Origin: a phage
Reading direction: 5' to 3' (one strand)
Assembly (NCBI GenBank): GCA_032325415.1
Contig: GCA_032325415.1_4119.2
Length of the DNA: 45,695 nt
Shown here one piece after another: positions 8,569 to 21,704 of the stretch. Within the stretch, counting starts at the first letter, position 1. Each line of letters starts with the position of its first letter. A program made the position numbers and the translations under genes. The notes under the pieces are model-generated. The model did no database searches and had not been told where the DNA came from. It saw only the letters and a program-made list of their open reading frames with translations.

Positions 8569-8576
8569 AAAAGTAC

Positions 8577-8797: not shown

Positions 8798-8809
8798 AAA
8801 TATTATCAC

Positions 8810-8845: not shown

Positions 8846-8878
8846 AGATTTTATCAAGACAACTAAGAGGAAATTAAA

Positions 8879-9223: not shown

Positions 9224-9303
9224 TTAGCTTTACTTTATGCAGATACTTTGATATAGTGTCTGCATAGGGGAAAGAAATTAAATTAACTTAAGAGGATAGT
9301 ATA

Positions 9304-9573: not shown

Positions 9574-9624
9574 TCAAAACATCGTTAGCGGTCGATTTAG
9601 GCCGCTTATATTGGGGATTATACC

Positions 9625-9897: not shown

Positions 9898-9902
9898 TTA
9901 AT

Positions 9903-10112: not shown

Positions 10113-10130
10113 TTTTTAAACGCGTATAAT
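10103..10130 (+). promoter_or_regulatory. sigma70-like promoter (cassette type)
   Basis: -35 TTGCAA 10103-10108, 16-bp spacer, -10 TATAAT 10125-10130; hairpin GCGGGAATAGTTCCCCC. Confidence 0.65.
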
Positions 10131-10182
10131 GTTTTACATCGAGAGCGGGAATAGTTCCCCCCTCACTTTTAAGGAATATGAA

Positions 10183-10329
10183 ATGAAAGCATCAAAAAAG
10201 AGTACTAACAAGAAAGCACGTTCAACCTTAGATGGGGTATTCCCTTTACGTTTCGTTGATGAAGTGGTTTCCTACCCGCCTGGCCTTACTCCTGAGATGG
10301 TAGAAAGTTTGCGTAAATCTAAAAAATAG
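10183..10329 (+). CDS. small basic protein (48 aa)
   Basis: SD AAGGAAT then ATG 10183, in frame with track ORF 10129 whose start is in the promoter. Confidence 0.55.
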   Translation: MKASKKSTNKKARSTLDGVFPLRFVDEVVSYPPGLTPEMVESLRKSKK

Positions 10330-10332
10330 TAC

Positions 10333-10360
10333 TTGCAATTAGTTTTTAGTACTGTATAAT
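10333..10360 (+). promoter_or_regulatory. sigma70-like promoter (cassette type)
   Basis: -35 TTGCAA 10333-10338, 16-bp spacer with CAGTACTG, -10 TATAAT 10355-10360; hairpin GGGGAGAA-ATGA-TTCTCCCC. Confidence 0.65.
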
Positions 10361-10410
10361 GTTTTACATGAAGGGGAGAAATGATTCTCCCCAATAACAG
10401 GAGAAACAAA

Positions 10411-10563
10411 ATGAAACAATACAACGCTCGGTTTGATGTTACTATCGGTAACGGCAAAGGTCAATTCTCTTTCAGTACTCGCCGCAGTTATACAGAAAAC
10501 TTCCTGCGTAATTGTGCACTGACCGCCGCTCAAATTAAACATTACTTTCAGGCTAAAAAATGA
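10411..10563 (+). CDS. small protein (50 aa)
   Basis: SD CAGGAGA then ATG 10411, in frame with track ORF 10381. Confidence 0.55.
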   Translation: MKQYNARFDVTIGNGKGQFSFSTRRSYTENFLRNCALTAAQIKHYFQAKK

Positions 10564-10649
10564 GATCATTAGCTTATTACAGTTCGGCCCTGGTCGGTGC
10601 ATTGATCGCGGCGTTGTTAGTAACCTATCTATTCTTTATGGTGATTTAA
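10560..10649 (+). CDS. small hydrophobic membrane peptide (29 aa)
   Basis: ATG 10560 overlaps upstream stop (ATGA); MRSLAYYSSALVGALIAALLVTYLFFMVI is a single predicted transmembrane helix; not in track. Confidence 0.45.
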   Translation: MRSLAYYSSALVGALIAALLVTYLFFMVI

Positions 10650-10784
10650 ATGAATCCTAACGGTATAGTTTACAGTACTCCTAAAACGAAAGCAGATAAA
10701 GCTAAAGCACGTAAAGCGAAAGTAAAGGAGTACATCAAGCAAGGCATGACACGAAAGGCCGCAGTACTTAAAGCTAAAAAATAA
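10650..10784 (+). CDS. small Lys-rich basic protein (44 aa)
   Basis: ATG 10650 directly follows the previous stop (TAAATG); MNPNGIVYSTPKTKADKAKARKAKVKEYIKQGMTRKAAVLKAKK; not in track. Confidence 0.4.
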   Translation: MNPNGIVYSTPKTKADKAKARKAKVKEYIKQGMTRKAAVLKAKK

Positions 10785-10787
10785 ATG

Positions 10788-10882
10788 AAAAAAGTGGTTG
10801 ACTTCGGTCAGCCATTTTGCTATTATATATTCATTGAGAGATAGCTCACTAGCCCACAGGGTGCAGGAGTGTATCTATTATA
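10788..10882 (+). repeat. R module copy 1: terminator-like hairpin with embedded promoter plus conserved core AGCCCACAGGGTGCAGGAGTGTATCT
   Basis: Hairpin GTGGTTGAC-TTCG-GTCAGCCAT (wobble-compensated), -35 TTGACT 10798-10803, -10 TATTAT 10821-10826; homologous to 14813, 17527, 19497. Confidence 0.65.
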
Positions 10883-10920
10883 TGAGTATTGAGTACTGAA
10901 AACTATTTTTAAAAAAGTAC

Positions 10921-10948
10921 TTGCAAACTATCTCAATAAGCGTATAAT
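10921..10948 (+). promoter_or_regulatory. sigma70-like promoter (cassette type)
   Basis: -35 TTGCAA 10921-10926, 16-bp spacer, -10 TATAAT 10943-10948; hairpin AGGGGAAAC-G-GTTTCCCCT. Confidence 0.65.
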
Positions 10949-10999
10949 GTTTTACATCGAAAGGGGAAACGGTTTCCCCTGGTAATAAGGAAACAAATC

Positions 11000-11341
11000 A
11001 TGACTATCTCAATTGCTCAATCTAACTTTGAAAATGAAATCATCGCCCAGGCACTGCGTTTAAATGATGGTCGGGCCGAAATTAATTACGGTTTCAATTC
11101 AGGCGGTTGTGAAAAATATCAGTACTTTGTAACGGCTGATGGCGGTGTCCTGGGTATCAATACAGTTATTGTAAACATCCAAAAAATTAATTTCAATGAT
11201 CCAGAGGATAGCCAGTTTTACATCACTGGCGTAGACGTGAACTATGAGGATGACTCACTAACTGATGATCACACTGGTGAGCGGTTAGAAAGTGCATACG
11301 GTGAAGATGATTATCAGTCCGGTCCAGAAGATTTCGAATAA
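11000..11341 (+). CDS. hypothetical acidic protein (113 aa)
   Basis: SD TAAGGAAA then ATG 11000; track ORF. Confidence 0.65.
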   Translation: MTISIAQSNFENEIIAQALRLNDGRAEINYGFNSGGCEKYQYFVTADGGVLGINTVIVNIQKINFNDPEDSQFYITGVDVNYEDDSLTDDHTGERLESAYGEDDYQSGPEDFE

Positions 11342-11355
11342 TATAAAAAAATAGT

Positions 11356-11383
11356 TTGACAATAGATTATAGTACTGTATAAT
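11356..11383 (+). promoter_or_regulatory. sigma70-like promoter (cassette type)
   Basis: -35 TTGACA 11356-11361, 16-bp spacer with AGTACTG, -10 TATAAT 11378-11383; hairpin GGGGAGAA-TAG-TTCTCCCC. Confidence 0.65.
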
Positions 11384-11436
11384 AGTTTACATCAAGGGGA
11401 GAATAGTTCTCCCCACTAACAGAGAGAGAAAACAAA

Positions 11437-11649
11437 ATGGCTAATATCCGGTCGAAATTAAAAAATGCAAAACAAGTTTTATTTTCAGATCATGAATACT
11501 TTAATAAAGATATTACAGGAGTTACAAGTATCAAGGAAGTAAAAGAAAAAACCGGCGTTTTGTGTGATGTGCGATTAGTTGGAACATTTGGGAATAACGT
11601 GCTATATCGCTGCGGTGATTACAATTTTACACTGACTATCATTAACTAA
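11437..11649 (+). CDS. hypothetical protein (70 aa)
   Basis: ATG 11437 after AGAGAGAGAAAACAAA leader; track ORF. Confidence 0.6.
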   Translation: MANIRSKLKNAKQVLFSDHEYFNKDITGVTSIKEVKEKTGVLCDVRLVGTFGNNVLYRCGDYNFTLTIIN

Positions 11650-11661
11650 AAATATTATCAC

Positions 11662-11697
11662 AGTACTATTGACATAGTTTGATAGTACTGACATAAT
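11662..11697 (+). promoter_or_regulatory. promoter with operator-like inverted repeat AGTACTAT-N12-ATAGTACT
   Basis: AGTACTAT 11662-11669, -35 TTGACA 11669-11674, ATAGTACT 11682-11689, -10 CATAAT 11692-11697. Confidence 0.6.
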
Positions 11698-11731
11698 AAC
11701 TTTTATCAACTACACTACTAAGGAATTAAAA

Positions 11732-11911
11732 ATGGCTATCATCGCAAAAACTGAAATCATCGGCCTGGATTCTATCATCATGACGTTTGAAGATCAAAAA
11801 GGTATGTATGTGGTTTCCTATGGTGATTATGTTCGGGAGTATGAAACGGTAGACGAAGCCTTTGAAAGTTACATTCGCCAGGTGAATAAAGCATACGACG
11901 ACTACCGCTAA
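11732..11911 (+). CDS. small protein (59 aa), not in ORF track
   Basis: SD TAAGGAAT then ATG 11732; ORF MAIIAKTEIIGLDSIIMTFEDQKGMYVVSYGDYVREYETVDEAFESYIRQVNKAYDDYR; the minus-strand track ORF 11778..11978 is rejected. Confidence 0.55.
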   Translation: MAIIAKTEIIGLDSIIMTFEDQKGMYVVSYGDYVREYETVDEAFESYIRQVNKAYDDYR

Positions 11912-11922
11912 AATATATTACC

Positions 11923-11966
11923 AGTACTATTAAATCTATTGACAATGTTTGATAGTACTGTATAAT
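11923..11966 (+). promoter_or_regulatory. promoter with operator-like inverted repeat AGTACTAT-N21-ATAGTACT
   Basis: AGTACTAT 11923-11930, -35 TTGACA 11939-11944, ATAGTACT 11952-11959, -10 TATAAT 11961-11966. Confidence 0.6.
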
Positions 11967-12010
11967 AAGTTTTATCAACAGTAGTTAACTTAACCTAAGA
12001 GAGAAACAAA

Positions 12011-12154
12011 ATGATCGCACTGGATTCATTCATCGACGCAGTACTGGCAAAAACTGGCGAGGATCTGACCGCAGAACAATACGCGATGATCGAGCAATGC
12101 CAGCAAGACGGTAAATCGGTGAAAGATACTGTTAAGATTATCCGCAAGATGTAA
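12011..12154 (+). CDS. small protein (47 aa), not in ORF track
   Basis: SD TAAGAGAGA then ATG 12011; ORF MIALDSFIDAVLAKTGEDLTAEQYAMIEQCQQDGKSVKDTVKIIRKM; followed by terminator. Confidence 0.5.
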   Translation: MIALDSFIDAVLAKTGEDLTAEQYAMIEQCQQDGKSVKDTVKIIRKM

Positions 12155-12160
12155 GATTAT

Positions 12161-12190
12161 AGCCCACTGGTTAACGCTGGTGGGCTTTAA
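12161..12190 (+). terminator. probable rho-independent terminator
   Basis: AGCCCAC-TGGTTAACGC-TGGTGGGCT hairpin then TTTAATT (weak T-run). Confidence 0.55.
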
Positions 12191-12259
12191 TTCATTACCC
12201 TATACAATGCCAGTACTACACCGTTTATCTCGTTAGAATGCGTTACAGGACGTTTGACA

Positions 12260-12457
12260 ATGATTAGCATGAAATCAGTACAAAAACAAATAGAAACATT
12301 ATCAAAAATTAAACGTAAACAGTACTCCTTAGAATATACAATCAATGGTAACTATCATCTAATGAAAGAGAATAATTTTATCGTCATTGATGAATCATTG
12401 CAAATCATTAGTATAGTACTGAAAGCATTAATCAATGACAGAAAAAAATTAAAATAA
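12260..12457 (+). CDS. hypothetical AT-rich protein (65 aa)
   Basis: Track ORF; ATG 12260 with SD-like AGGACG 7 nt upstream; no cassette promoter; composition differs from neighbours. Confidence 0.4.
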   Translation: MISMKSVQKQIETLSKIKRKQYSLEYTINGNYHLMKENNFIVIDESLQIISIVLKALINDRKKLK

Positions 12458-12461
12458 ACTA

Positions 12462-12490
12462 TTGACAATATCATCAAGTACTGGCATAAT
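12462..12490 (+). promoter_or_regulatory. sigma70-like promoter
   Basis: -35 TTGACA 12462-12467, 17-bp spacer with AGTACTG, -10 CATAAT 12485-12490. Confidence 0.55.
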
Positions 12491-12541
12491 ACTTACATCA
12501 AGACGAGAACGTCACTAACCCATAGGGTGCACAAATGTAAC

Positions 12542-12625
12542 TGTATAATATTGATCAAAAAATGATCTGATCAATACTTGATCAATTTGCGTAAAGTAGT
12601 ATAATTCTGATCAATTCTTGATCAA
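12542..12625. promoter_or_regulatory. cluster of six GATC sites (five within TGATCAA palindromes) flanked by extended -10-like elements
   Basis: GATC at 12553, 12564, 12569, 12580, 12609, 12620; TGTATAAT 12542-12549 and TAGTATAAT 12597-12605. Confidence 0.55.
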
Positions 12626-12786
12626 AGGCAATAAACGCAGTTGAATTTATATAGACAATACAAAGGCGTTACTATCCGTGGTAATGCTGGTGGATATGTA
12701 GTATCATATGGTTTGAATAAGATTAGCACTAGTAGTATTATTGTAGCATTACAGTACTATAGTATTTTTATAATGAGGTTAAAATA

Positions 12787-13044
12787 ATGGCTGTTGGATT
12801 CGCGAAGGACGGGGCCGAGCAAGACGAGATTAACGCAGTGATTCAGGCCGCTGTAAACCACGCTAGAACGCAAATTAACGCACAAATAGAATCACTGATA
12901 CATTGCCTCGACTGTGGCGATAAAATCCCTGAGAATCGCCGCCAGGTCGTTAAGGGGTGTAAGTACTGTATCACTTGCCAGGAGGATCATGATAGTACTT
13001 TTAAACGTCAACCGCGTAATTGTTGGCATAGATCTATGAGATAA
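12787..13044 (+). CDS. TraR/DksA-family C4 zinc-finger protein (85 aa), likely RNA-polymerase-binding regulator
   Basis: CLDCGDKIPENRRQVVKGCKYCITCQ matches the TraR/DksA zinc-finger pattern CxxCG-x-IP-x-x-RR ... CxxCQ (compare F-plasmid TraR CEACGNPIPEARRK...CVECQ). Confidence 0.8.
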   Translation: MAVGFAKDGAEQDEINAVIQAAVNHARTQINAQIESLIHCLDCGDKIPENRRQVVKGCKYCITCQEDHDSTFKRQPRNCWHRSMR

Positions 13045-13050
13045 AAAGTA

Positions 13051-13078
13051 TTGACAGTACTGAAAGATAGTGTATAAT
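13051..13078 (+). promoter_or_regulatory. sigma70-like promoter
   Basis: -35 TTGACA 13051-13056, 16-bp spacer with AGTACTG, -10 TATAAT 13073-13078. Confidence 0.6.
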
Positions 13079-13107
13079 GTTTTATATCTTAACTGAGGAT
13101 AGAAATC

Positions 13108-13464
13108 ATGGGAATACAACATATCACGCGTACTACTGACAATGGCGAGATCACTGGCTATCAAGTACAGGGCAAAGTAGCACAATTGCAGTACTGGTTT
13201 GTTAAACGTGGAATCATTGCACCGGATCTTGATTATGACCGTGTAGCGTTTATTGATTCTCTTTATGTTGATCCTGATAGTCGGGGGAATGGTGAAGGTA
13301 ACGAATTAATGAATGCCTTTATTGATGCCGCCGATGATTCAGATTGTATCATCTTAGAATGCGATACGGGAGAAGATAACGCCTTTAATCTTAAAGAATG
13401 GTATGAAGGTTTCGGATTCGAGGTACTGATCGATAGTGAATATCCTATCATGATTTTATCATAG
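13108..13464 (+). CDS. putative GNAT-family N-acetyltransferase (118 aa)
   Basis: SLYVDPDSRGNGEGNELMNAF resembles GNAT motif A (R/Q-x-x-G-x-G/A acetyl-CoA loop) and EWYEGFGFE resembles motif B; SD TGAGGAT. Confidence 0.55.
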   Translation: MGIQHITRTTDNGEITGYQVQGKVAQLQYWFVKRGIIAPDLDYDRVAFIDSLYVDPDSRGNGEGNELMNAFIDAADDSDCIILECDTGEDNAFNLKEWYEGFGFEVLIDSEYPIMILS

Positions 13465-13467
13465 TAC

Positions 13468-13496
13468 TTGCATTTAGTTTTCAGTACTGTTATAGT
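13468..13496 (+). promoter_or_regulatory. sigma70-like promoter (cassette type)
   Basis: -35 TTGCAT 13468-13473, 17-bp spacer with CAGTACTG, -10 TATAGT 13491-13496; hairpin AGGGGAA-ACATC-TTCCCCT. Confidence 0.55.
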
Positions 13497-13542
13497 ACTT
13501 GCATCAAGGGGAAACATCTTCCCCTACTAAGAGGAAATAAAA

Positions 13543-13731
13543 ATGGAAAACTTATCAAGTATTTTAGTACAAGATGATTTCGGTAATCCTGGAAGTGCTA
13601 TCATTGTTCGGGGTAATAAAGCAACATTTGTTATTGCTGGTGGACCTGTACAGCGTAGCATTAAAAACAATGCCGTTACTATTAATAATGTACGCTATCG
13701 CTTAGATAAAGAATTGATTCATAAACTGTAA
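13543..13731 (+). CDS. hypothetical protein (62 aa)
   Basis: SD TAAGAGGA then ATG 13543; track ORF. Confidence 0.6.
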   Translation: MENLSSILVQDDFGNPGSAIIVRGNKATFVIAGGPVQRSIKNNAVTINNVRYRLDKELIHKL

Positions 13732-13758
13732 TATTAATTTAATAGAGGATAACAATAA

Positions 13759-14082
13759 ATGTACATTCATACTACTATCACAAAGGAAGTCCGTTGCCAG
13801 TTCGAAAGTATTCCGGGCGTATGTTTCATCACTGGTACGTTTTCCCCTGGTGATCGTGATAATCCAGTACTGTTACAATTACGCCATCCATCATGGGATA
13901 AAGCATTTGATCTACCGTTGAATGAATTCGCAACTACTGCTGAAAAGTACATTAAAAATATTCGCGAGAATGATCGACTATTCATTAATGCTTTTAGTGA
14001 TTCCGCGTTAAGCGAGATCCACGGCGTATTGGTTGCAATCATGGAATCAATGCAGAAAACTAAATTCAAACAAGGTGAATAA
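13759..14082 (+). CDS. hypothetical protein (107 aa)
   Basis: SD AGAGGA then ATG 13759; track ORF; overlapping minus-strand ORF 13767..14177 rejected. Confidence 0.6.
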   Translation: MYIHTTITKEVRCQFESIPGVCFITGTFSPGDRDNPVLLQLRHPSWDKAFDLPLNEFATTAEKYIKNIRENDRLFINAFSDSALSEIHGVLVAIMESMQKTKFKQGE

Positions 14083-14088
14083 AAACTA

Positions 14089-14116
14089 TTGACAATGCAA
14101 TCCAGTACTGTATAAT
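14089..14116 (+). promoter_or_regulatory. sigma70-like promoter (cassette type)
   Basis: -35 TTGACA 14089-14094, 16-bp spacer with CAGTACTG, -10 TATAAT 14111-14116; hairpin GGGGAGAA-ATGA-TTCTCCCC. Confidence 0.65.
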
Positions 14117-14165
14117 AAGTTACATGAAGGGGAGAAATGATTCTCCCCACTGAGAGGAAAGAAAA

Positions 14166-14378
14166 ATGCAAGGTCAACTAATCGTTCGTAAATGGTCTGA
14201 TACTAACGAAAAACCGTGGGATGTACAATACATCGGACCGGATGGGGTATCACGTTATCAGCCTGGCGTAACGCATAGTACTGAGCAATTCGCCAACGCT
14301 CACCGCGAACGCCTGTTAGAATCCATGAAACAGGGATACGGTGAAAAATTCATTCAAGATCATTGGCTGAAAGATTAA
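14166..14378 (+). CDS. hypothetical protein (70 aa)
   Basis: SD TGAGAGGA then ATG 14166; track ORF. Confidence 0.65.
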   Translation: MQGQLIVRKWSDTNEKPWDVQYIGPDGVSRYQPGVTHSTEQFANAHRERLLESMKQGYGEKFIQDHWLKD

Positions 14379-14395
14379 TATAAGGAGTACAGCTT

Positions 14396-14488
14396 ATGCA
14401 AATGAATCCGATGATTATTGTTTTAGCTGTACTTATGATCATTCATGCAATAGTAGAAGTATTAACGCAATCAGGAGTAATAAAATGA
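14396..14488 (+). CDS. small hydrophobic membrane peptide (30 aa)
   Basis: Strong SD TAAGGAG then ATG 14396; MQMNPMIIVLAVLMIIHAIVEVLTQSGVIK; not in track. Confidence 0.5.
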   Translation: MQMNPMIIVLAVLMIIHAIVEVLTQSGVIK

Positions 14489-14658
14489 TTCAAGTAGAAT
14501 TATCAGTACTGAAAGATCTGTTTTATCGGTTAGGTACTACTGGAGAGTATCCTAAAAGTGATACCGCAAAACTTTTTGTATCACTCGACTTATGGCAACG
14601 CGAACAATTAGTAATGTCCTGGCGTAAAGGTAAAGCAGATAGCGAGGTGAAAGCATGA
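14485..14658 (+). CDS. small protein (57 aa)
   Basis: ATG 14485 overlaps upstream stop (ATGA) with SD CAGGAG inside the upstream ORF; not in track. Confidence 0.45.
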   Translation: MIQVELSVLKDLFYRLGTTGEYPKSDTAKLFVSLDLWQREQLVMSWRKGKADSEVKA

Positions 14659-14804
14659 AAGAATTCTTATTCGAAGTAGTGTTTCAAGGTGTCGGTAGTA
14701 ACCAACTGATTCGCTCAAGTGGTTATAATGTTAACCAGGCATGGAATAACATTAAACAAATGTACCCGAACGCTATCACCTATCGCAACCCGAAAGAAGT
14801 TTAA
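14655..14804 (+). CDS. small protein (49 aa)
   Basis: ATG 14655 overlaps upstream stop (ATGA); SD GAGGTG; not in track. Confidence 0.45.
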   Translation: MKEFLFEVVFQGVGSNQLIRSSGYNVNQAWNNIKQMYPNAITYRNPKEV

Positions 14805-14812
14805 AAATATTT

Positions 14813-14900
14813 GAAAAAGGGATTGACTCCGGTCAGTCCCTTTGCTATTATATACGCATAGAAACAAATCAGCCCACAGGGTGCATAAATGTATCTATTG
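14813..14900 (+). repeat. R module copy 2 (terminator-like hairpin, embedded promoter, conserved core)
   Basis: AAAAAGGGATTGACTCCGGTCAGTCCCTTT hairpin; -35 TTGACT 14823-14828, -10 TATTAT 14846-14851; core AGCCCACAGGGTGCATAAATGTATCT. Confidence 0.65.
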
Positions 14901-14935
14901 TTTGCTGGTGGCTAGTACTGAAAACTATTTTTAAA

Positions 14936-15117
14936 AAGTACTTGCATTGTACTTAGAATCAAGTATAATGTTTTACATCAGGACGGGGAACGAAACAAGT
15001 AACCCCGTTAAGTAGTCCAGGAGTAAGACATAAGAAAACCTCCCCTGATAAAATAGTTTGACAATAGAAAGTAAAAGAGTATAATACTTACATCAACCAC
15101 TGATAAGGAAACATAAA
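14936..15117 (+). repeat. dual-promoter leader module, copy 2 (near-identical to 3990-4172)
   Basis: Promoter A (-35 TTGCAT 14942-14947, -10 TATAAT 14964-14969), hairpin ACGGGGAA...CCCCGT, conserved AAGTAGTCCAGGAGTAAGACATAAGAAAACCTCCCCTGATAAAATAG, promoter B (-35 TTGACA 15058-15063, -10 TATAAT 15080-15085). Confidence 0.7.
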
Positions 15118-15393
15118 ATGCGGATTCTACTGACAGCTAACGAAATCGAACAAGTACTGACTACTAACCTGGAAGACTGGAAACGTGAAGCAGATATCCA
15201 GGCGGTTCAACGGCTTAACGATGAGTTAACGCCGGATGACTTAAGCAAGATTGTAGATCCTCAATTCTACGAAGATATCCACGACACCGCGTTAAGCGTC
15301 GAGGATGTACTAGATAAGCACTACATTGATATTGATTTGCAGGTTTACGGTCGTAAAAACTTTATCACTATTCACGACATTTACAATAATTAA
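15118..15393 (+). CDS. hypothetical acidic protein (91 aa)
   Basis: SD TAAGGAAA then ATG 15118; track ORF. Confidence 0.65.
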   Translation: MRILLTANEIEQVLTTNLEDWKREADIQAVQRLNDELTPDDLSKIVDPQFYEDIHDTALSVEDVLDKHYIDIDLQVYGRKNFITIHDIYNN

Positions 15394-15396
15394 GTA

Positions 15397-15424
15397 TTGA
15401 CAAAGTATCTTAGTACTGTATAAT
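15397..15424 (+). promoter_or_regulatory. sigma70-like promoter (cassette type)
   Basis: -35 TTGACA 15397-15402, 16-bp spacer with AGTACTG, -10 TATAAT 15419-15424; hairpin GAGGGGAA-ACGG-TTCCCCTC. Confidence 0.65.
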
Positions 15425-15481
15425 AGTTTACATCAAGTGAGGGGAAACGGTTCCCCTCCTAACAAAGAGAGAGAAATAAAA

Positions 15482-15805
15482 ATGGCTATGATCCTTACCC
15501 AGAAAGTGGAACTGAAAATTGTAACCTCCTTTGACATTAACGTTAATCGGTGGACTGATTCACACGGCAATACTTACCACTCTTGCTACGTGTCTGCTTT
15601 AATTGGCGACCGCTGGGAAGACCTGGGACACGAAACCTTTACATACGGTTACGGTACACAAGGCGAATACACGGGCTTGGAGATCATTAAAGAAACCGTT
15701 ATAGGTTTCAACCCGAAAGAAAAAGTTATTCACCGCATCGAGGAAGAGATCAACAAAGAAATAACAGTTCGCTACCACGATGTAAAACGTAAGAAAGACA
15801 TGTAA
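15482..15805 (+). CDS. hypothetical protein (107 aa), distant paralog of 8879..9223
   Basis: ATG 15482 in frame with track ORF 15437 whose start is in the leader hairpin. Confidence 0.65.
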   Translation: MAMILTQKVELKIVTSFDINVNRWTDSHGNTYHSCYVSALIGDRWEDLGHETFTYGYGTQGEYTGLEIIKETVIGFNPKEKVIHRIEEEINKEITVRYHDVKRKKDM

Positions 15806-15819
15806 TAGAATCCATTTAA

Positions 15820-15856
15820 AGTACTATTTGACATTGCCCAGATAGTACTTTATAAT
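15820..15856 (+). promoter_or_regulatory. promoter with operator-like inverted repeat AGTACTAT-N14-ATAGTACT
   Basis: AGTACTAT 15820-15827, -35 TTGACA 15828-15833, ATAGTACT 15842-15849, -10 TATAAT 15851-15856. Confidence 0.6.
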
Positions 15857-15900
15857 AGACTCTAACTTGTAGTACTAACTCAACTAATAGGATGTATACC

Positions 15901-16296
15901 ATGATTACTAAATTCTACGCTACCCGTGAAGCTGCCCGTATTGTTGCACGCGAGGAAGGAGCAGCATTTAAAGACATGGGCAAAGATGCACCGAAAGGCC
16001 AACGCTGGGCCGTACAGTTCAAAGAGATCTCTGATATTGTGAATTCACCTGAGCCAGTACTAACAGCAGCAGAACTAAAACGAGCGGATTTACTGGCGTC
16101 AATACTTGATGCACAAGATGAGTTTATCGCTGATTCTGATATCAAAGTACAGACAAACCATACCGCTTGGACTCACGCGGATCACCTGGCAAACCTGAAG
16201 CGTCCAAGTGAACTGGTACGCAACCAGAAAGAGATCCGACACGACCGTAAGGGTAATCGTGTAACAGTATACAGTAAACGCCGCCAGGTTATCTAA
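15901..16296 (+). CDS. hypothetical protein (131 aa), paralog of 3163..3429
   Basis: ATG 15901 chosen by paralog alignment and SD AGGAT spacing; track start 15892 is an alternative. Confidence 0.6.
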   Translation: MITKFYATREAARIVAREEGAAFKDMGKDAPKGQRWAVQFKEISDIVNSPEPVLTAAELKRADLLASILDAQDEFIADSDIKVQTNHTAWTHADHLANLKRPSELVRNQKEIRHDRKGNRVTVYSKRRQVI

Positions 16297-16318
16297 TAAC
16301 TTGCAGTACTAACAACAC

Positions 16319-16344
16319 GGCGGGATCAGTTCCCGCCTTTTTTA
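16319..16344 (+). terminator. rho-independent terminator
   Basis: GGCGGGA-TCAG-TTCCCGCC followed by TTTTTTAT. Confidence 0.8.
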
Positions 16345-16357
16345 TAGGACAAACAAA

Positions 16358-16612
16358 ATGATTAAGGTTCAACTATATAAAGATAATATCTTGCGGGTAC
16401 ACTATAAAGCCCCTCAGAGAATCATCACAAAGGCCGTACAGCTTGCTAATGAGTTTATTAATGGTAACCTATTACCTAGGAAGTTAAGCAACGGGAAACT
16501 GCGTGTAATCGACGTGGACACTAACAACAGGATAGTAATCGAGAACACAGGAAAGATAAACCTTTATGAGCATCAACAATACAATAAGAAAATAAAACTA
16601 ATATCACGTTGA
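16358..16612 (+). CDS. hypothetical protein (84 aa)
   Basis: Track ORF downstream of terminator; weak SD. Confidence 0.5.
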   Translation: MIKVQLYKDNILRVHYKAPQRIITKAVQLANEFINGNLLPRKLSNGKLRVIDVDTNNRIVIENTGKINLYEHQQYNKKIKLISR

Positions 16613-16637
16613 CAGTACTCAAATGTTTTAGTACTAT
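16609..16637 (+). promoter_or_regulatory. putative sigma70-like promoter
   Basis: -35 TTGACA 16609-16614, 17-bp spacer, -10 TACTAT 16632-16637. Confidence 0.45.
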
Positions 16638-16666
16638 ATGTACATACCAACACGGGGAGAAACAAA

Positions 16667-16909
16667 ATGATTACTTTAGAAAAACGTATCAAAGAAACTA
16701 CATCGCTGGTGGAACTGTTAACAGTACTCAAATGTAAAACTACTCGGTTTAGTACACCGGACTTTATTAATATGGTTGATGTTAATGGTCGCTATCGTAT
16801 CACGGTCGAACAAGGAGCGGCGAAAGTATTCAGTACTAAAAACACTAAGGAAGTGATTCACGCTGTAAGTGTTAAAAAAGTAGTTGCCATTGATAGTAAA
16901 GTACTGTAA
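16667..16909 (+). CDS. hypothetical protein (80 aa)
   Basis: SD GGGGAGA then ATG 16667; track ORF. Confidence 0.55.
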   Translation: MITLEKRIKETTSLVELLTVLKCKTTRFSTPDFINMVDVNGRYRITVEQGAAKVFSTKNTKEVIHAVSVKKVVAIDSKVL

Positions 16910-16940
16910 GATAGTTTCATTAACTCAAGGAGAACATGCA

Positions 16941-17525
16941 ATGCGTAATTATACTAAATTCATCCGTACCCTGTCAGAAATGGAAACCAACAAAGAGATC
17001 CTTTCAGCTTGTCGGTTAGCTGGTCTGGAGATCATCGGTGCGGGTTCTTCCCGTATTGTATTCGCTTTAAATGATCGGTTAGTGATTAAGGTCGCGAATT
17101 GTGATGCGGGTGTAGAACAAAATGAAACTGAATGTAAGGTATGGAATTTTTTAGATTATGACCGCCCTCAATTGAAACAGTACTTTGCAAAGGTGCATAT
17201 GCATTTATGCGATCCTGATAATATGTTTATCGTTATGGATCGGTTGAGTACTGCAAGTAAAGGCAGTGTAAAGCACGTAAACGCGTGCAATGAATTAAAG
17301 TACAATATTAAACGTAATGCCATTGAACGCCAGCACCGCTTTGCTGATGCACTACAACACGTTGATGATACATTATCAACACTAACGATAAGAGATATCA
17401 GAAAACAGAATATCGGCCAGGATCGTAATGGCCTTATTAAAGTACTTGATTACGGTTTAACCCGCAATATCTGGAATCAGTACTATAAAAAGCGTGATGT
17501 AGAAGCAAGTAAGGTAACACGATAA
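16941..17525 (+). CDS. putative small protein-kinase-like protein (194 aa)
   Basis: SD AAGGAG then ATG 16941; motifs IGAGSSRIVF (Gly-rich loop), LVIKVA (VAIK-like Lys), IRDIRKQNIG (HRD-x-K-x-x-N-like catalytic loop), KVLDYGL (DFG-like). Confidence 0.55.
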   Translation: MRNYTKFIRTLSEMETNKEILSACRLAGLEIIGAGSSRIVFALNDRLVIKVANCDAGVEQNETECKVWNFLDYDRPQLKQYFAKVHMHLCDPDNMFIVMDRLSTASKGSVKHVNACNELKYNIKRNAIERQHRFADALQHVDDTLSTLTIRDIRKQNIGQDRNGLIKVLDYGLTRNIWNQYYKKRDVEASKVTR

Positions 17526-17526
17526 A

Positions 17527-17612
17527 AAAAGATTAAAAAAGGGATTGACTCCGGTCAGTCCCTTTGCTATTATATATTCATTGAGAGATAACTCACTGAC
17601 CCATAGGGTGCG
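17527..17612 (+). repeat. R module copy 3 (terminator-like hairpin, embedded promoter, conserved core)
   Basis: AAAAAAGGGATTGACTCCGGTCAGTCCCTTT; -35 TTGACT 17545-17550, -10 TATTAT 17568-17573; core GACCCATAGGGTGCGGAAGTGTATCT. Confidence 0.65.
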
Positions 17613-17666
17613 GAAGTGTATCTATTATATAAGTATTCAGTACTGAAAACTATTTTTAAAAAGTAC

Positions 17667-17694
17667 TTGCATTGTACTTAGAATCAAGTATAAT
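17667..17694 (+). promoter_or_regulatory. sigma70-like promoter (cassette type)
   Basis: -35 TTGCAT 17667-17672, 16-bp spacer, -10 TATAAT 17689-17694; hairpin GAGAGGGGAA-ATGG-TTCTCCCTC. Confidence 0.65.
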
Positions 17695-17747
17695 GTTTTA
17701 TATCGAGAGGGGAAATGGTTCTCCCTCAAAGAACAAGGAATAAAATC

Positions 17748-17969
17748 ATGACTACAATGACTTGCATTCACGCTTCAAACCTGCTTAATGATGCGGCCTT
17801 TAATGTTGAAACAGAATATCAATGTTATCGGGATGAAAATAAAAAAGTTTTTGTAGTTGATAATAATGGTTTCCATATTGAATTGCAATCCGGCTTCACT
17901 GGCGTTGATGGTAAATCAGTATGGGGAGTACAGGATGATAAAGGCACATATCATTTTAAACGTAATTAA
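17748..17969 (+). CDS. hypothetical protein (73 aa)
   Basis: SD AAGGAAT then ATG 17748, in frame with track ORF 17715. Confidence 0.65.
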   Translation: MTTMTCIHASNLLNDAAFNVETEYQCYRDENKKVFVVDNNGFHIELQSGFTGVDGKSVWGVQDDKGTYHFKRN

Positions 17970-17972
17970 GTA

Positions 17973-18000
17973 TTGACAAAGTATATCAGTACTGTATAAT
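17973..18000 (+). promoter_or_regulatory. sigma70-like promoter (cassette type)
   Basis: -35 TTGACA 17973-17978, 16-bp spacer with CAGTACTG, -10 TATAAT 17995-18000; hairpin GGGGAGAA-TAG-TTCTCCCC. Confidence 0.65.
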
Positions 18001-18053
18001 AGTTTACATCAAGGGGAGAATAGTTCTCCCCACCAATAAAAGGAAACAAAATT

Positions 18054-18326
18054 ATGTCCAGCTACTCCGCTACTATGATTATTAAAGATATGAACGGTAA
18101 TCCTACTTCTGCTGGTGGATCATTTGGTAACATTAACTTAGATGGGCGGTTATCAATTGAATCAGCCATCAATGCCGCGAAAGAAGTTTTTAAGAATGAA
18201 TGTACTGTAAGCAAGCTGGATTATATGGGCTTCGCTATCGAGAAAACTAATCGTTTTGTGGACTACAAAAAACCACTGATGATCGATACTAACCTGAAAG
18301 CTAACGAAGTGGAATACTTATTATGA
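18054..18326 (+). CDS. hypothetical protein (90 aa)
   Basis: SD AAAGGAAA then ATG 18054; track ORF. Confidence 0.65.
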   Translation: MSSYSATMIIKDMNGNPTSAGGSFGNINLDGRLSIESAINAAKEVFKNECTVSKLDYMGFAIEKTNRFVDYKKPLMIDTNLKANEVEYLL

Positions 18327-18514
18327 CAGTAGAAGAAGTTAAAAAAGTACTGGCAGTACTACGCTATCATAATCATTGCAAGGTGAAGAATGATCCTGAT
18401 TATGTTGATTCATCCCTGGAGGAAGACACATTAAACGCAATAAGCCATATGCAAAAAATGCTTAAGCGTATGACCGAAAAGAACAGGCCAGACTATATCG
18501 GAAATAAAATTTAA
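18323..18514 (+). CDS. hypothetical protein (63 aa)
   Basis: ATG overlaps upstream stop (ATGA), translational coupling; track ORF. Confidence 0.55.
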   Translation: MTVEEVKKVLAVLRYHNHCKVKNDPDYVDSSLEEDTLNAISHMQKMLKRMTEKNRPDYIGNKI

Positions 18515-18521
18515 AAAGTAC

Positions 18522-18549
18522 TTGCATTGTAGTTAGATTAACGTATAAT
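18522..18549 (+). promoter_or_regulatory. sigma70-like promoter (cassette type)
   Basis: -35 TTGCAT 18522-18527, 16-bp spacer, -10 TATAAT 18544-18549; hairpin GCGGGGGAA-TAG-TTCTCCCGC. Confidence 0.65.
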
Positions 18550-18600
18550 GTTTTACATAGAGCGGGGGAATAGTTCTCCCGCCAGTCCAGGAGATACACC

Positions 18601-18864
18601 ATGAACACTATCGAAATCACTATCAATGCACACGTATACGACAACGTAGTACTGCAAACTACTATGACCGCCAATGATACCAGTACTTTGCGGAATGCCG
18701 TTGTAAGTGCTGTATGTGCTGCAATCGGTGATGTAGCCCTGGAAAATGCAGAACACATCAACAACGGTTTCACTATGTGCAAACGTGATAACGCAAAACA
18801 TATCATCGTAGAAGGTTACGGCGGTGTAGAATTTAATGTTTATATGAAAAAAGTACTTGCATAA
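18601..18864 (+). CDS. hypothetical protein (87 aa)
   Basis: SD CCAGGAGA then ATG 18601; last codons overlap the next -35. Confidence 0.65.
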   Translation: MNTIEITINAHVYDNVVLQTTMTANDTSTLRNAVVSAVCAAIGDVALENAEHINNGFTMCKRDNAKHIIVEGYGGVEFNVYMKKVLA

Positions 18865-18884
18865 TAACTAAAACAAAGTATAAT
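18857..18884 (+). promoter_or_regulatory. sigma70-like promoter (cassette type)
   Basis: -35 TTGCAT 18857-18862, 16-bp spacer, -10 TATAAT 18879-18884; hairpin GGGGGAG-ATAT-CCTCCCCC. Confidence 0.65.
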
Positions 18885-18931
18885 GTTTTGCATAGGGGGA
18901 GATATCCTCCCCCACTAAAAGGAGTAATAAA

Positions 18932-19156
18932 ATGGCTAACTTTGATGAACTGATGCGGGAAGTAGCTAACCTGGCAGAAGAGAAGAAATCATTCGATTCT
19001 ATCTATAACACCGCTCACCGTGATTCAGTACTGGCATGTACTCAGGATCAAAAAGATGAACTAATCGCCACCTATCATGAAGCATGGAAGTACTACCGAC
19101 AATGGGAGAAAGAAGAAAGTGAGTCTACCATTGACGGCCTCAATAATCTAATCTAA
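18932..19156 (+). CDS. hypothetical acidic protein (74 aa)
   Basis: SD AAAGGAGT then ATG 18932; track ORF. Confidence 0.65.
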   Translation: MANFDELMREVANLAEEKKSFDSIYNTAHRDSVLACTQDQKDELIATYHEAWKYYRQWEKEESESTIDGLNNLI

Positions 19157-19168
19157 AAGTTTTATTTC

Positions 19169-19205
19169 AGTACTATTGACATAGCTTGATAGTACTGATG
19201 TAATA
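19169..19205 (+). promoter_or_regulatory. promoter with operator-like inverted repeat AGTACTAT-N12-ATAGTACT
   Basis: AGTACTAT 19169-19176, -35 TTGACA 19176-19181, ATAGTACT 19189-19196, -10-like TGTAAT about 19199-19204. Confidence 0.55.
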
Positions 19206-19232
19206 ACTTTACTAACTACAAGGGGAAACATA

Positions 19233-19490
19233 ATGGAACAGTTCACACAATATCGGGTAAATCCTCAAGCTATGGCCTACGTAGAAGACCATAAAACATT
19301 ACCAGTACTGCAACCAGTTAAAGGCCATATCTATCGTGCTATGTCGTGGAGTACGGCCCAGGATGGCTATAAAACCGTAGCCGTTGGTATGTATTGCGGG
19401 AATGGTGAATGGTTTGATCCAAATAATCCGGTAGCCATTGACAGTACTGAAAAAATGAAATGGGCCGACTACATCGAAGATATTTCATAA
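19233..19490 (+). CDS. hypothetical protein (85 aa)
   Basis: SD AAGGGGA then ATG 19233; track ORF. Confidence 0.6.
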   Translation: MEQFTQYRVNPQAMAYVEDHKTLPVLQPVKGHIYRAMSWSTAQDGYKTVAVGMYCGNGEWFDPNNPVAIDSTEKMKWADYIEDIS

Positions 19491-19496
19491 AAAGAA

Positions 19497-19585
19497 TAAA
19501 AAAGGGATTGACTCCGGTCAGTCCCTTTGCTATTATATACGCATAGACAAAAACTAGCCCACAGGGTGCATAGGTGTATCTAAAA
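19497..19585 (+). repeat. R module copy 4 (terminator-like hairpin, embedded promoter, conserved core)
   Basis: AAAAAAGGGATTGACTCCGGTCAGTCCCTTT; -35 TTGACT 19508-19513, -10 TATTAT 19531-19536; core AGCCCACAGGGTGCATAGGTGTATCT. Confidence 0.65.
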
Positions 19586-19670
19586 TATATAGTTAATAAC
19601 GGTGAGTAACTATCTGCTGGTGGATGTACTGCCAGTACTCAAGGGAACTAAAACTATTAATAAAAAAGTA

Positions 19671-19699
19671 TTGACAAAGTATATCAGTACTGCGATAAT
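19671..19699 (+). promoter_or_regulatory. sigma70-like promoter
   Basis: -35 TTGACA 19671-19676, 17-bp spacer with CAGTACTG, -10 GATAAT 19694-19699. Confidence 0.55.
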
Positions 19700-19752
19700 G
19701 TATCTCGTAGGGCGGCAATGGTGCGACGGCCCACAAAGTTAGGAGATTCAAA

Positions 19753-20085
19753 ATGAGTACTTCAATCGCTATCGTTAAAGCTTTCATCCGTACCAATGTT
19801 TCATCTGTATTCATCGACGGACTGGATCGTGAAGTAGAATACTCAATCATTATCGCACAGACTGCAAACGGTGCTCGGTATATCCTCAATGATAGTGAAG
19901 CAAATCACTACTACTTCACTAAAGCTACTGGCTTTAAACGCATCGATGCCGATGTAGTATACGCTAAGATGAATAAGCTGGTAGACAAGATTAACGCTAA
20001 AGGCACTATTGATTTACAGTACTGGACCGAAACCGATCCAGAATATGGATCTCACCGCTACCTGAATCCAGGTATCAAAATGTAA
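19753..20085 (+). CDS. hypothetical protein (110 aa)
   Basis: SD TAGGAG then ATG 19753; track ORF; overlapping minus-strand ORF 19593..19889 rejected. Confidence 0.65.
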   Translation: MSTSIAIVKAFIRTNVSSVFIDGLDREVEYSIIIAQTANGARYILNDSEANHYYFTKATGFKRIDADVVYAKMNKLVDKINAKGTIDLQYWTETDPEYGSHRYLNPGIKM

Positions 20086-20092
20086 AAAGTAC

Positions 20093-20120
20093 TTGCATAG
20101 TACTTAGATTCATGTATAAT
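20093..20120 (+). promoter_or_regulatory. sigma70-like promoter (cassette type)
   Basis: -35 TTGCAT 20093-20098, 16-bp spacer, -10 TATAAT 20115-20120; hairpin GAGGGGGAA-ATGG-TTCTCCCTC. Confidence 0.65.
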
Positions 20121-20174
20121 GTTTTACATAGAGAGGGGGAAATGGTTCTCCCTCCTAAATTAAGGAGTTTTATC

Positions 20175-20576
20175 ATGACCTTCTCAATCACTTCCTTCGC
20201 TGACGTTTTAGTACTGGCTCGGACTTTTGGTAAAGATGCACTGGAGTACGCTGTAAGTAATGGTACTATCCAACCGGAACAGTGCCGCATCATTGGAAAC
20301 TGCAAACGTTGGGCGGTATCCAATACTATTGCACTGGAAAACTTCCACGATGGCAACAATGAATATTCTGTTGATGTAGTATTCGAAGCCGTTGATCTCG
20401 GCGGTATCTATAATACTAACCTGAATGATGTGCGTATCGTTCGCACGGGGTTCGGTGCTTATGATGTATCTATTCGTGAAGCTATGAACACCGGATACAT
20501 TAGCAAGGACTTACTTGCTCACATCATGCAGCTGTGTACGGAACGTAACGAAGCACGTACTATCTTAGGGCTGTAA
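20175..20576 (+). CDS. hypothetical protein (133 aa)
   Basis: SD TAAGGAGT then ATG 20175, in frame with track ORF 20112 whose start is in the promoter. Confidence 0.65.
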   Translation: MTFSITSFADVLVLARTFGKDALEYAVSNGTIQPEQCRIIGNCKRWAVSNTIALENFHDGNNEYSVDVVFEAVDLGGIYNTNLNDVRIVRTGFGAYDVSIREAMNTGYISKDLLAHIMQLCTERNEARTILGL

Positions 20577-20600
20577 GCAATACACATCACCAAACATCAT

Positions 20601-20620
20601 AGGCCGCTCTCTAGCGGCCT
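20601..20620 (+). other. GC hairpin AGGCCGC-TCTCTA-GCGGCCT (weak terminator or RNA-stability element)
   Basis: 7-bp GC stem; no T-run follows. Confidence 0.35.
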
Positions 20621-20644
20621 TAACTATATCAGGAGTACATACAT

Positions 20645-20854
20645 ATGTTCTATACAGTATACAGCGTTCTAGGTACTATTGCAGGCGTACATGATAACGT
20701 CAATGATGCTATGCGTACAGTACTGCAACAGGTTCCACTAAAGCCTAAGACCATTAAGCAGATGACAGCACGACTAACCAGGGCGACCGATGGCGTGGAA
20801 GTATGGCAGGACTACGGGGATACACAGATAATCGTTAGCGTAACGAAGGATTAA
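20645..20854 (+). CDS. hypothetical protein (69 aa)
   Basis: SD CAGGAGT then ATG 20645; track ORF; last gene before the compositional boundary. Confidence 0.6.
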   Translation: MFYTVYSVLGTIAGVHDNVNDAMRTVLQQVPLKPKTIKQMTARLTRATDGVEVWQDYGDTQIIVSVTKD

Positions 20855-20882
20855 TGCGTAAAGGGATCTAGTACTGATTCAG

Positions 20883-20948
20883 AAAAAAGTCAAGGCGTTT
20901 TTAAAATTATGCGTTAAAAAAATGCATAGGTAATCCCTTGACTTTTTT
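20883..20948. promoter_or_regulatory. perfect 13-bp inverted repeat AAAAAAGTCAAGG / CCTTGACTTTTTT with about 40-bp spacer at module boundary
   Basis: Arms at 20883-20895 and 20936-20948; flanked by AAGGGAT / ATCCCTT; related in sequence to the R-module hairpin. Confidence 0.6.
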
Positions 20949-21045
20949 GAAATAAAAGGGATTGGACTATGGCAAAATGCGTAGGGGGCTAAAGGGCGGG
21001 TAACCTTAGCGACTTCGATAAAGGTGTATTACGAATAAAATGTTA

Positions 21046-21073
21046 TTGATTTTTTATACGAATCGTATATTAT
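21046..21073 (+). promoter_or_regulatory. putative promoter for the paralog array, with palindromic operator-like site TATACGA-A-TCGTATA
   Basis: -35 TTGATT 21046-21051, 16-bp spacer, -10 TATTAT 21068-21073; near-perfect palindrome 21055-21069. Confidence 0.45.
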
Positions 21074-21103
21074 AGGATTGATATTATTTTTAATGGAGTC
21101 CCT

Positions 21104-21301
21104 ATGCGTATTTTAACTAAAGAACAGCACCACGAAAGACTTATCAATAACATGGCTATGATAATGTATAAGTCCCATGACCGTGGTATTGCCTATAAGC
21201 GTGAATTAATTATGGCACTATTCATTGGAACTAACTTTCAGGAAAGGTATGTCAACGATTGGATTTGGTATTTAATTGAAGATATAACGAGTAAACTATG
21301 A
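21104..21301 (+). CDS. family-A small paralog (65 aa)
   Basis: Track ORF; C-terminal FIGTNFQERYVNDWIWYLIEDITSKL; SD GGAG. Confidence 0.65.
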   Translation: MRILTKEQHHERLINNMAMIMYKSHDRGIAYKRELIMALFIGTNFQERYVNDWIWYLIEDITSKL

Positions 21302-21498
21302 AAATGCGTATTTTAAATAAAGAAGAATATCAATCACTGTTACGTAAAAACTTCACAAAGATTTATAATACAGACACACACGTAGAACGAATGGAGTTAT
21401 ACCTTTTGATTACTTTGGGAACTAACTATCAGGAAAGATGGGTGATTCAATATATGGATACATTGAAAAATAAAATATTGTCCACGAGGAAACAATGA
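21298..21498 (+). CDS. family-A small paralog (66 aa)
   Basis: ATGA overlap; LGTNYQERWV motif. Confidence 0.65.
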   Translation: MKMRILNKEEYQSLLRKNFTKIYNTDTHVERMELYLLITLGTNYQERWVIQYMDTLKNKILSTRKQ

Positions 21499-21704
21499 AA
21501 ACTATAACACGAACCCAATCATACGGTCTTATCTTGAAATACATGGACTTAATGGTGGATATCAGCAAAGACCTTCCTAAAACTGAAATTGAAGTTGCAA
21601 GAGCAGAGATCCGCATGTTGGCTGTACTGAACACAAACCATCAGGAAGAGTATGTTGACGATTGGATTCGATTTTTAATAGAAGATATTAAGAGTAAACT
21701 ATGA
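21495..21704 (+). CDS. family-A small paralog (69 aa)
   Basis: ATGA overlap; LNTNHQEEYVDDWIRFLIEDIKSKL. Confidence 0.65.
   Translation: MKTITRTQSYGLILKYMDLMVDISKDLPKTEIEVARAEIRMLAVLNTNHQEEYVDDWIRFLIEDIKSKL

Follow-up and report, generated by a model that had tools for sequence, protein, structure and literature searches.

The stretch of DNA analysed here, which we call the window, is the 45,695-nt contig GCA_032325415.1_4119.2, and the subject of this study is a 249-nt intergenic junction at positions 20855-21103. Nearly all of the plausible genes in the window lie on the + strand, and no tRNA genes were found in it. On its left, the junction is bordered by a 69-aa gene that has an orthologue, 37% identical, at the same position in fENko-Kae01 and Munch; on its right begins a long run of small, overlapping genes (Table 1). 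Pfam and PHROGs searches with the proteins near the junction returned no family with an assigned function. IMG/VR was queried with the 69-aa protein and with the pattern GATTGGACTATG-N32-CCTTAG, and nothing came back but 121Q itself and one chance match in a coding region of an unrelated contig.

A sequence search with a 3.5-kb segment around the junction matched 42 phage records at 80-99% identity. The closest, at 88-96%, are Asteriusvirus phages, among them JP4, G17, Sharanji, slurp01, PBECO4 and 121Q; these six are all jumbo myoviruses of approximately 350-385 kb, and the matching records whose lineage was checked were either Asteriusvirus or unclassified. Judged by these matches, the window is part of an Asteriusvirus jumbo coliphage resembling 121Q, PBECO4 and G17. 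RaK2 was also considered for comparison, and it carries a homologue of the 69-aa protein, but within a tight gene array that has no comparable junction or box, so that it was uninformative.

Table 1. Features in and around the junction, in window coordinates; a bar within a sequence marks the cut. DTR, direct terminal repeat.
Feature	Position	Strand	Details
Unique DNA, right genome end	1-659	+	GC 33.7%; precedes the DTR in the concatemer or collapsed assembly
DTR, single copy	660-21006	+	20,347 bp; GC 38.6%; monocistronic genes, sigma70-consensus promoters, hairpin terminators
Last DTR gene	20645-20854	+	69 aa; phrog_17833
Nested hairpin	20883-20948	+	Outer 13-bp arms 20883-20895 and 20936-20948; inner hairpin 20907-20929; 3' arm ends in T6
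Conserved box GATTGGACTATG	20960-20971	+	Ends exactly 35 nt before the end of the DTR
Terminus core CCT|TAGC	21004-21010	+	Right end of virion DNA after 21006, by the ends of relatives
Predicted sigma70-like promoter TTGATT-16-TATTAT	21046-21073	+	9/12 match; first promoter of the unique region
Putative ribosome-binding site GGAG of the first array gene	21095-21098	+	Read from sequence
Run of overlapping small genes, phrog_4148 family	21104-27481	+	65-96 aa; GC ~33%

Composition and gene layout

The initial annotation described a sharp boundary here, with separately promoted genes upstream and translationally coupled genes downstream, and both parts of that description are borne out. The maximum-likelihood GC change point falls at 21017 (2-log-likelihood support interval 20816-21069; log-likelihood ratio 88, against a block-shuffle maximum of 14.6). 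The step is abrupt rather than gradual, from 38.5% GC on the left to 32.5% on the right, and it is present at all three codon positions (GC3 medians 0.386 vs. 0.313, p=6e-6). Left of the boundary, genes are separated by a median of 75 nt, with 4.5% overlaps; right of it, the median is -4 nt and 80% of the genes overlap or abut. Perfect 12/12 sigma70 consensus promoters number nine on the + strand inside the DTR and one to the right of it, and there are none on the - strand; between 660 and 15000, 76 promoter-like sites were found by consensus match where 49+/-6 were expected. Composition and gene layout change here because two modules meet, the DTR and the unique region.

Several repeated elements were seen in and near the DTR. 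A terminator-promoter cassette, AAAGGGATTGACTCCGGTCAGTCCCTTT-GC-TATTAT, occurs at 17538-17565 and 19501-19528, and also at 14816-14843 and 10791-10818; the ascending arm of its hairpin holds the -35 of the next promoter (TTGACT), and its first bases resemble AAAAGGGATTGGACT of the junction box region. The palindrome CAGTACTG is present in 51 copies in the window, where 0.64 would be expected, and AGTACT in 201, both being densest in 561-20725. Per kilobase, AGTACT occurs 6.7 times in the terminal repeat, 1.2 times in 21007-36600 and 4.2 times in 36601-45695, and CAGTACTG is absent from 20726-36625. AGTACTG often fills the spacer just ahead of the -10 in consensus promoters (TTGACA-N8/9-(C)AGTACTG-TATAAT) and is also found after and within genes. 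AGTACT is enriched in the fENko-Kae01 repeat as well, and a literature search for the CAGTACTG motif yielded nothing relevant. The first ~1.66 kb of the DTR (660-2324) has no + strand ORF of at least 60 aa and is rich in repeats, with tandem units of 24 and 40 nt at 1467-1552, a direct repeat at approximately 2178-2244 and many copies of AGTACTG; a near-consensus promoter lies within it at 1025-1052.

The right boundary of the direct terminal repeat

The identity of the junction comes from the ends of its relatives. Six independently deposited relatives have records that stop at ...GGGCGGGTAACCT (window 20967-21006): those of fEgEco12, vB_Ec-M-J, CRJP21 and E9.1 end with it, and those of G17 and WPEC5 start with its reverse complement. 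In its shortest form, the right end at which the six records finish is ...GGGTAACCT. The final 40 nt of the fEgEco12 record are identical to window 20967-21006 at 40/40 positions. The left end, AGTAGGCAGAGG... or, in its longer form, AGTAGGCAGAGGAAGTCTGCC..., is where the records of fEgEco12 and CRJP21 start and, in reverse complement, where that of G17 ends; it maps to window 660, with 60/60 bases of 660-719 identical to the relatives' end. In vB_Ec-M-J, a repeat_region annotated as 'Direct Terminal Repeats' (1..21525) ends 152 nt past the stop codon of the 69-aa orthologue, which corresponds to window 21006. Both DTR termini therefore match experimentally determined virion DNA ends and, with the left end at 660 and the right end at 21006, the DTR occupies 660-21006 and its right boundary is 21006|21007.

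The length of this repeat is in line with what has been published. The fEgEco12 DTR is 20,993 bp by PhageTerm, confirmed by restriction digests (PMC13070987), the G17 repeat is 'of about 20 kb', from coverage (PMC6563267), and the Sharanji DTR is 20,668 bp by PhageTerm (PMC11895373), the last being the same length as that implied by the G17 annotation. The 20,347 bp found here thus stands beside 20,668, 20,993 and 21,525 bp in relatives, a range of ~20-21.5 kb. The DTRs of G17, Sharanji, fEgEco12 and vB_Ec-M-J are the same sequence, and window positions 660 and 21006 coincide with record ends base for base; the window differs from those records in carrying a single, collapsed copy. Because there is only one copy, the assignment of the terminus rests on homology to the relatives' ends. 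Window 1-659 aligns at 97% with fEgEco12 353082-353740, directly upstream of the right DTR copy of that phage, so the order in the window of unique end (1-659), DTR (660-21006) and unique start (21007 onward) is, from these alignments, that of a concatemer-like, collapsed assembly. We are confident that the 249-bp junction spans the right boundary of the long, exact Asteriusvirus DTR, which would make it the physical end of the virion DNA. The initial annotation had thus picked out a real junction and missed its identity as the right boundary of the DTR.

The junction is orthologous to a repeat boundary that others have annotated and published; the kind of feature is already known, and its fine detail is partly new. 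In the available portions of the Asteriusvirus papers (PMC13070987, PMC6563267, PMC11895373, PMC12805682), we found no mention of the GC island, the hairpin, the box and its 35-nt spacing to the cut, or the promoter beyond the end. The value of this detail is chiefly for annotation and engineering, and no new kind of element is revealed. Many Asteriusvirus genomes, among them 121Q, PBECO4 and slurp01, were, like the window, deposited permuted or with the repeat collapsed, and, according to the fEgEco12 paper, the 8.3-kb repeat reported for UE-S1 appears to have been incorrectly assigned (PMC13070987). Since the end sequences are invariant, true termini can be placed by sequence alone, the left one by AGTAGGCAGAGG... 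and the right one by ...GATTGGACTATG-N35|TAGC.

The DTR is a GC island, at 38.6% against 33.7% on its left and 32.5% on its right. The same is true of fEgEco12 (38.5% vs. 33-34%, with 33.3% in the unique DNA on the other side of its DTR) and vB_Ec-M-J (38.6% vs. 32.5%), and in fENko-Kae01, which belongs to another genus, the repeat has 37.3% GC against 33.5%, with a change point at most 160 nt from the annotated repeat end. Published whole-genome GC values are 33.7-35.8% (sources including PMC13070987, PMC11895373 and PMC12805682). The compositional outlier is therefore the DTR and not the paralog array, whose GC is normal for the genome, and this argues against a recent acquisition of the array.

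By analogy with other phages, the DTR is probably an immediate-early module of small, individually promoted genes. A relative's repeat was classed by PhageTerm as 'long-ended T5 type', and the 10.1-kb long terminal repeat of T5 itself carries the pre-early genes and an injection stop signal (PMC12805682; bioRxiv 10.1101/866236; PMC7472727). The likeness to T5 lies in a long, exact, non-permuted repeat, in small genes of a host-takeover style with host sigma70 promoters (here consensus matches, nine of them 12/12) and in inverted repeats near the inner end. PA5oct, a Pseudomonas jumbo phage described as related to 121Q/PBECO4 (and RaK2), has a 39-kb terminal repeat with many genes highly transcribed early, TTGAC/TATAATA promoters and factor-independent terminators (PMC7318152). 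Its repeat differs from that of the window in length and gene content, and the likeness is drawn from gene expression and promoters, not from the boundary sequence. The terminal region of the Bacillus phage SPO1 holds small early genes with promoters and ribosome-binding sites typical of high expression (PMC6873191); it too is a host-takeover module in a terminal region, but in another family and host and with no sequence relationship. As in PA5oct, T5 and SPO1, the DTR genes would be the earliest set to be transcribed, and by the host RNA polymerase. On one side of the boundary is a probable immediate-early module, of which each virion has two copies, and on the other a differently organised paralog array, a division that helps in the design of transcriptomics and deletions and in the hunt for host-takeover genes.

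Hairpin, conserved box and cut site

A perfect 13-bp inverted repeat had also been reported in the junction. It is present, AAAAAAGTCAAGG and CCTTGACTTTTTT being complementary at 13/13 positions with 40 nt between the arms, and only 0.045% of shuffles of the 249-nt junction gave a perfect 13-bp repeat of this kind with at most 80 nt between its arms, so that it exceeds chance. Seven perfect 13-bp inverted repeats were seen in the whole window, where ~0.14 would be expected; most of the other six, where checked, are built on the CAGTACTG palindrome. The arms enclose an inner hairpin, and the resulting nested structure, which starts 29 nt past the stop of the 69-aa gene, has U6 within or after the stem and folds with z-scores of -3.2 to -4.1 (-3.85 in the lineage comparison). 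With its 40-nt loop, it was not picked up by a simple terminator scan. A search for known RNA families gave a single, sub-threshold match to a bglG cis-regulatory element (28 bits against a gathering score of 80), which we took as chance. The arms were also considered as promoters and rejected, as no usable -10 hexamer stands 16-18 nt from TTGACT on either strand. The junction motifs CCTTGACTTTTT, AAGTCAAGG and TTGAYTTTTTATAY are confined to the junction or occur at chance level elsewhere in the window.

The fine structure of the junction was compared over 13 sequences. In four of five lineages, the interval from the last DTR gene to the terminus contains a significantly stable hairpin (z -3.6 to -4.2), and three of those four hairpins have a U-rich tail; JNE01 has no significant structure in this interval (z -0.3). 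In fENko-Kae01, the same outer-stem core, AAGUCA/UGACUU, encloses an unrelated inner hairpin and is followed by UUUCU. The core AGTCAA/TTGACT recurs in both A4 and fENko-Kae01, A4 having an 11-bp stem with the same core and no U-run, and EJP2 has an unrelated hairpin with a U-rich tail in the same place. The 13-bp inverted repeat itself is absent in Turkey5, JNE01 and EJP2.

A stable hairpin with a U-rich tail 29 nt past a stop codon, in a region of individually terminated genes, can be read as an intrinsic terminator. We give even chances to the suggestion that the nested hairpin is one, and that it keeps DTR transcription away from both the DNA end and the array. In that role, it would stop transcription of the last DTR gene, with no run-off at the right-hand physical end, and at the left-hand copy of the DTR it would block read-through into the array.

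It is less probable, indeed rather unlikely, that the hairpin works at the level of DNA, whether in duplication of the repeat during concatemer processing, as an accessory terminase site or as a T5-like stop or pause in injection. Its position 58-123 bp from the physical right end would suit such a role, it folds well as single-stranded DNA (z -4.1), and what it has in common with the different genus of fENko-Kae01 is a core of sequence, beyond mere structure. The right end of the T5 repeat is likewise dense in inverted repeats and palindromes, tied there to the injection stop signal (bioRxiv 10.1101/866236). Against this, the hairpin is dispensable in three lineages with identical cut sites, and so is not essential for end formation, and the left junction has no counterpart of it. 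The end of the T5 repeat is straddled by a 1.66-kb non-coding repeat region with paired DnaA boxes, whereas here there are 249 nt and one hairpin; no DnaA site (TTWTNCACA) was found in 11116-26532, and no tandem repeats in 17382-23000. A T5-like injection stop signal, for which a large non-coding repeat region and DnaA boxes would be expected, was therefore rejected.

The T7 repeat is 160 bp, with processing elements established experimentally, and in the T7 hairpin model a hairpin helps to duplicate the repeat during concatemer processing. The window has the same topology as a T7-type concatemer junction as generally described (unique end, single repeat, unique start), with defined cuts at both repeat borders. 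An inverted repeat of 17 nt, 94% complementary (AATCATATATAAACATT / AATGATTATATATGATT), is found at 503-560, which is 100-157 nt outside the left repeat border and, we presume, at the position where the T7 model puts the processing hairpin. At the left physical end, 660-684 contains a hairpin-capable inverted repeat, AGTAGGCAGA...TCTGCCGTACT; the left end of fENko-Kae01 has a different 8-bp inverted repeat, TATCTTCT...AGAAGATA, so that the structure is common to the two and the sequence is not.

At the cut site, CT|TAGC is invariant in eight distinct lineages (the window, 121Q, fEgEco12, Turkey5, JNE01, A4, EJP2 and fENko-Kae01), vB_Ec-M-J has one extra T, and the PhageTerm end of fENko-Kae01 and Munch reads GCCT|TAGCC. 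GGGTAACC precedes the cut in most of the Escherichia phages, and the 12 nt that follow it, TAGCGACTTCGA (21007-21018), are retained even in relatives with inserted extra genes. Upstream, the box GATTGGACTATG has a single copy in the window and a single copy in 40 kb of fENko-Kae01, at an equal offset to the cut in both genera. One copy per segment examined and the 35-nt distance are kept in the window's clade, Turkey5, JNE01, fENko-Kae01 and Munch, and the 35 nt themselves are mostly diverged in fENko-Kae01 and Munch; EJP2 has a degenerate box and A4 has none. Two further observations were made upstream of the cut: Turkey5 has an 80-nt tandem duplication just past the last repeat gene (L012 1712-1936), and in Turkey5 and JNE01 ACCTTAGCG occurs a second time, 64 nt ahead of the true cut site.

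An invariant cut position with conserved flanks across diverged relatives is what a site-specific terminase cleavage signal should look like. The packaging nuclease (terminase) would cut concatemers after 21006, at CCT|TAGC. We tentatively propose, at somewhat less than even chances, that the box, its 35-nt spacing, CCT|TAGC and the next 12 nt make up the cis signal that positions this cut. The broader proposal, in which the hairpin, the GATTGGACTATG box, 35 bp, CCT|TAGC and 12 bases form a terminase signal that holds across genera and defines the right end in 121Q/Kae01-like phages, is the more doubtful of the two. No description of a packaging signal for such jumbo phages was found in the literature searched, insofar as its text was available. 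Exact words were compared between the left and right cuts (+/-200 nt, both orientations) in the window and in fENko-Kae01, and nothing longer than in shuffles was found except the ubiquitous AGTACTG. With no motif beyond chance common to both junctions, a single shared terminase recognition sequence is not evident. An outward-facing CTA does appear in inverted orientation at both cuts, CCACTA|AGTAGG (654-664) and, on the bottom strand, GTCGCTA|AGGTTAC (21002-21013), and likewise in fENko-Kae01 (CCGCTA|TATC and GTGGCTA|AGGC). This symmetry, at both cuts and in both genera, is a weak hint of symmetric cleavage or of end recognition with two-fold symmetry. Both cut sites of the window read CTNAG across the cut.

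The candidate promoter and the paralog array beyond the terminus

To the right of the terminus, the initial annotation placed a candidate promoter at 21046-21073, with a palindrome inside it and a duplicated TACGAAT, and suggested a control region for the whole array. The promoter gains its support from position, since its 9/12 class is by itself at background level (55 sites found vs. 52 expected). Every lineage examined has a sigma70-like site 29-45 nt past the terminus, made up of TTGACT or TTGACA and a TATAAT-like hexamer, and in most relatives the -35 of this promoter reads TTGACT. The position is kept whichever gene comes next, be it a phrog_4148 paralog or a 121-aa, 272-aa or ~160-aa gene; in fENko-Kae01 and Munch, TTGACA-17-TATACT starts 29 nt past the cut and is followed by a tightly packed array. 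On this positional evidence, we somewhat favour the prediction that 21046-21073 is the promoter of the array, in which case the array would be expressed from a weaker sigma70-like promoter of its own, 40 bp past the terminus.

The other two elements are present and carry less weight. The palindrome, TATACGA-A-TCGTATA at 21055-21069, is perfect in the window (7+1+7), but one like it turns up in ~5% of junction shuffles, and it is broken in G17, vB_Ec-M-J and 121Q. TACGAAT does occur twice, at 21030-21036 and 21057-21063, a trivial duplication that is lost in vB_Ec-M-J and G17. Both are within chance and disrupted in close relatives, so we attach no function to them. What stands of the proposed control region is thus the sigma70-like promoter; the inverted repeat lies inside the DTR and is missing from Turkey5, JNE01 and EJP2, and the palindrome is not conserved.

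It is very unlikely that the inverted repeat, the palindrome TATACGAATCGTATA or both are an operator through which a dimeric regulator switches the whole array. The non-randomness of the inverted repeat, the recurrence of its AGTCAA/TTGACT core in A4 and fENko-Kae01 and the place of the palindrome within the promoter spacer are what such an operator would predict. However, the inverted repeat is 98-163 nt away from the -35, on its upstream side and across the DNA terminus, and the right-hand DTR copy has no adjoining array. The lineages without the inverted repeat retain the promoter, the palindrome has the chance expectation and the breaks already described, and neither motif was found again elsewhere in the window.

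The array beyond the predicted promoter is built from paralogs. The phrog_4148 family has 31 members, 27 of them in 21104-27481, two at 28782-29236 and two at 41822-42212; one ORF within the run of small genes, at 23186-23434, did not cluster with the family. A second paralog family has 21 members of ~100-200 aa in 27471-45619 (phrog_9317, phrog_19795, phrog_13866 and phrog_12674). In EJP2 and fENko-Kae01 the DTR boundary lacks the small-protein array, and proteins of ~160-190 aa, weakly related to the second family, abut the DTR directly. PBECO4 and BF17 carry an extra 121-aa gene inserted ~13 nt past the terminus, A4 has a different insert there, a 272-aa gene, and the Salmonella phage SD-2_S15 has lost ~80 nt, including the array promoter and ribosome-binding site (L011, about 3380). 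Judged from these comparisons, gene gain and loss have a hot spot in the bases just past the terminus.

These insertions, the deletion and the replacement of the array, along with the abrupt GC step, could be taken for a scar of horizontal transfer or recombination at which an AT-rich array was acquired as a block, with the inverted repeat marking the recombination site. Such an acquisition had been offered as the alternative in the initial annotation, and we consider it the most improbable of the readings: the array GC of 32.5% equals that of the unique DNA beyond the DTR (33.7% here, 33.3% in fEgEco12, 32.5% in vB_Ec-M-J) and is near the whole-genome values quoted above, the GC step falls 11 nt from genome ends that were determined experimentally, the inverted repeat sits 58-123 nt inside the DTR and away from the point at which relatives diverge, and among 36 records there is no relative with the same DTR end and the array elsewhere, flanked by copies of the inverted repeat. 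The sole large gap in the small-gene array, at 22561-22708, looks like a decayed paralog and not like a regulatory region.
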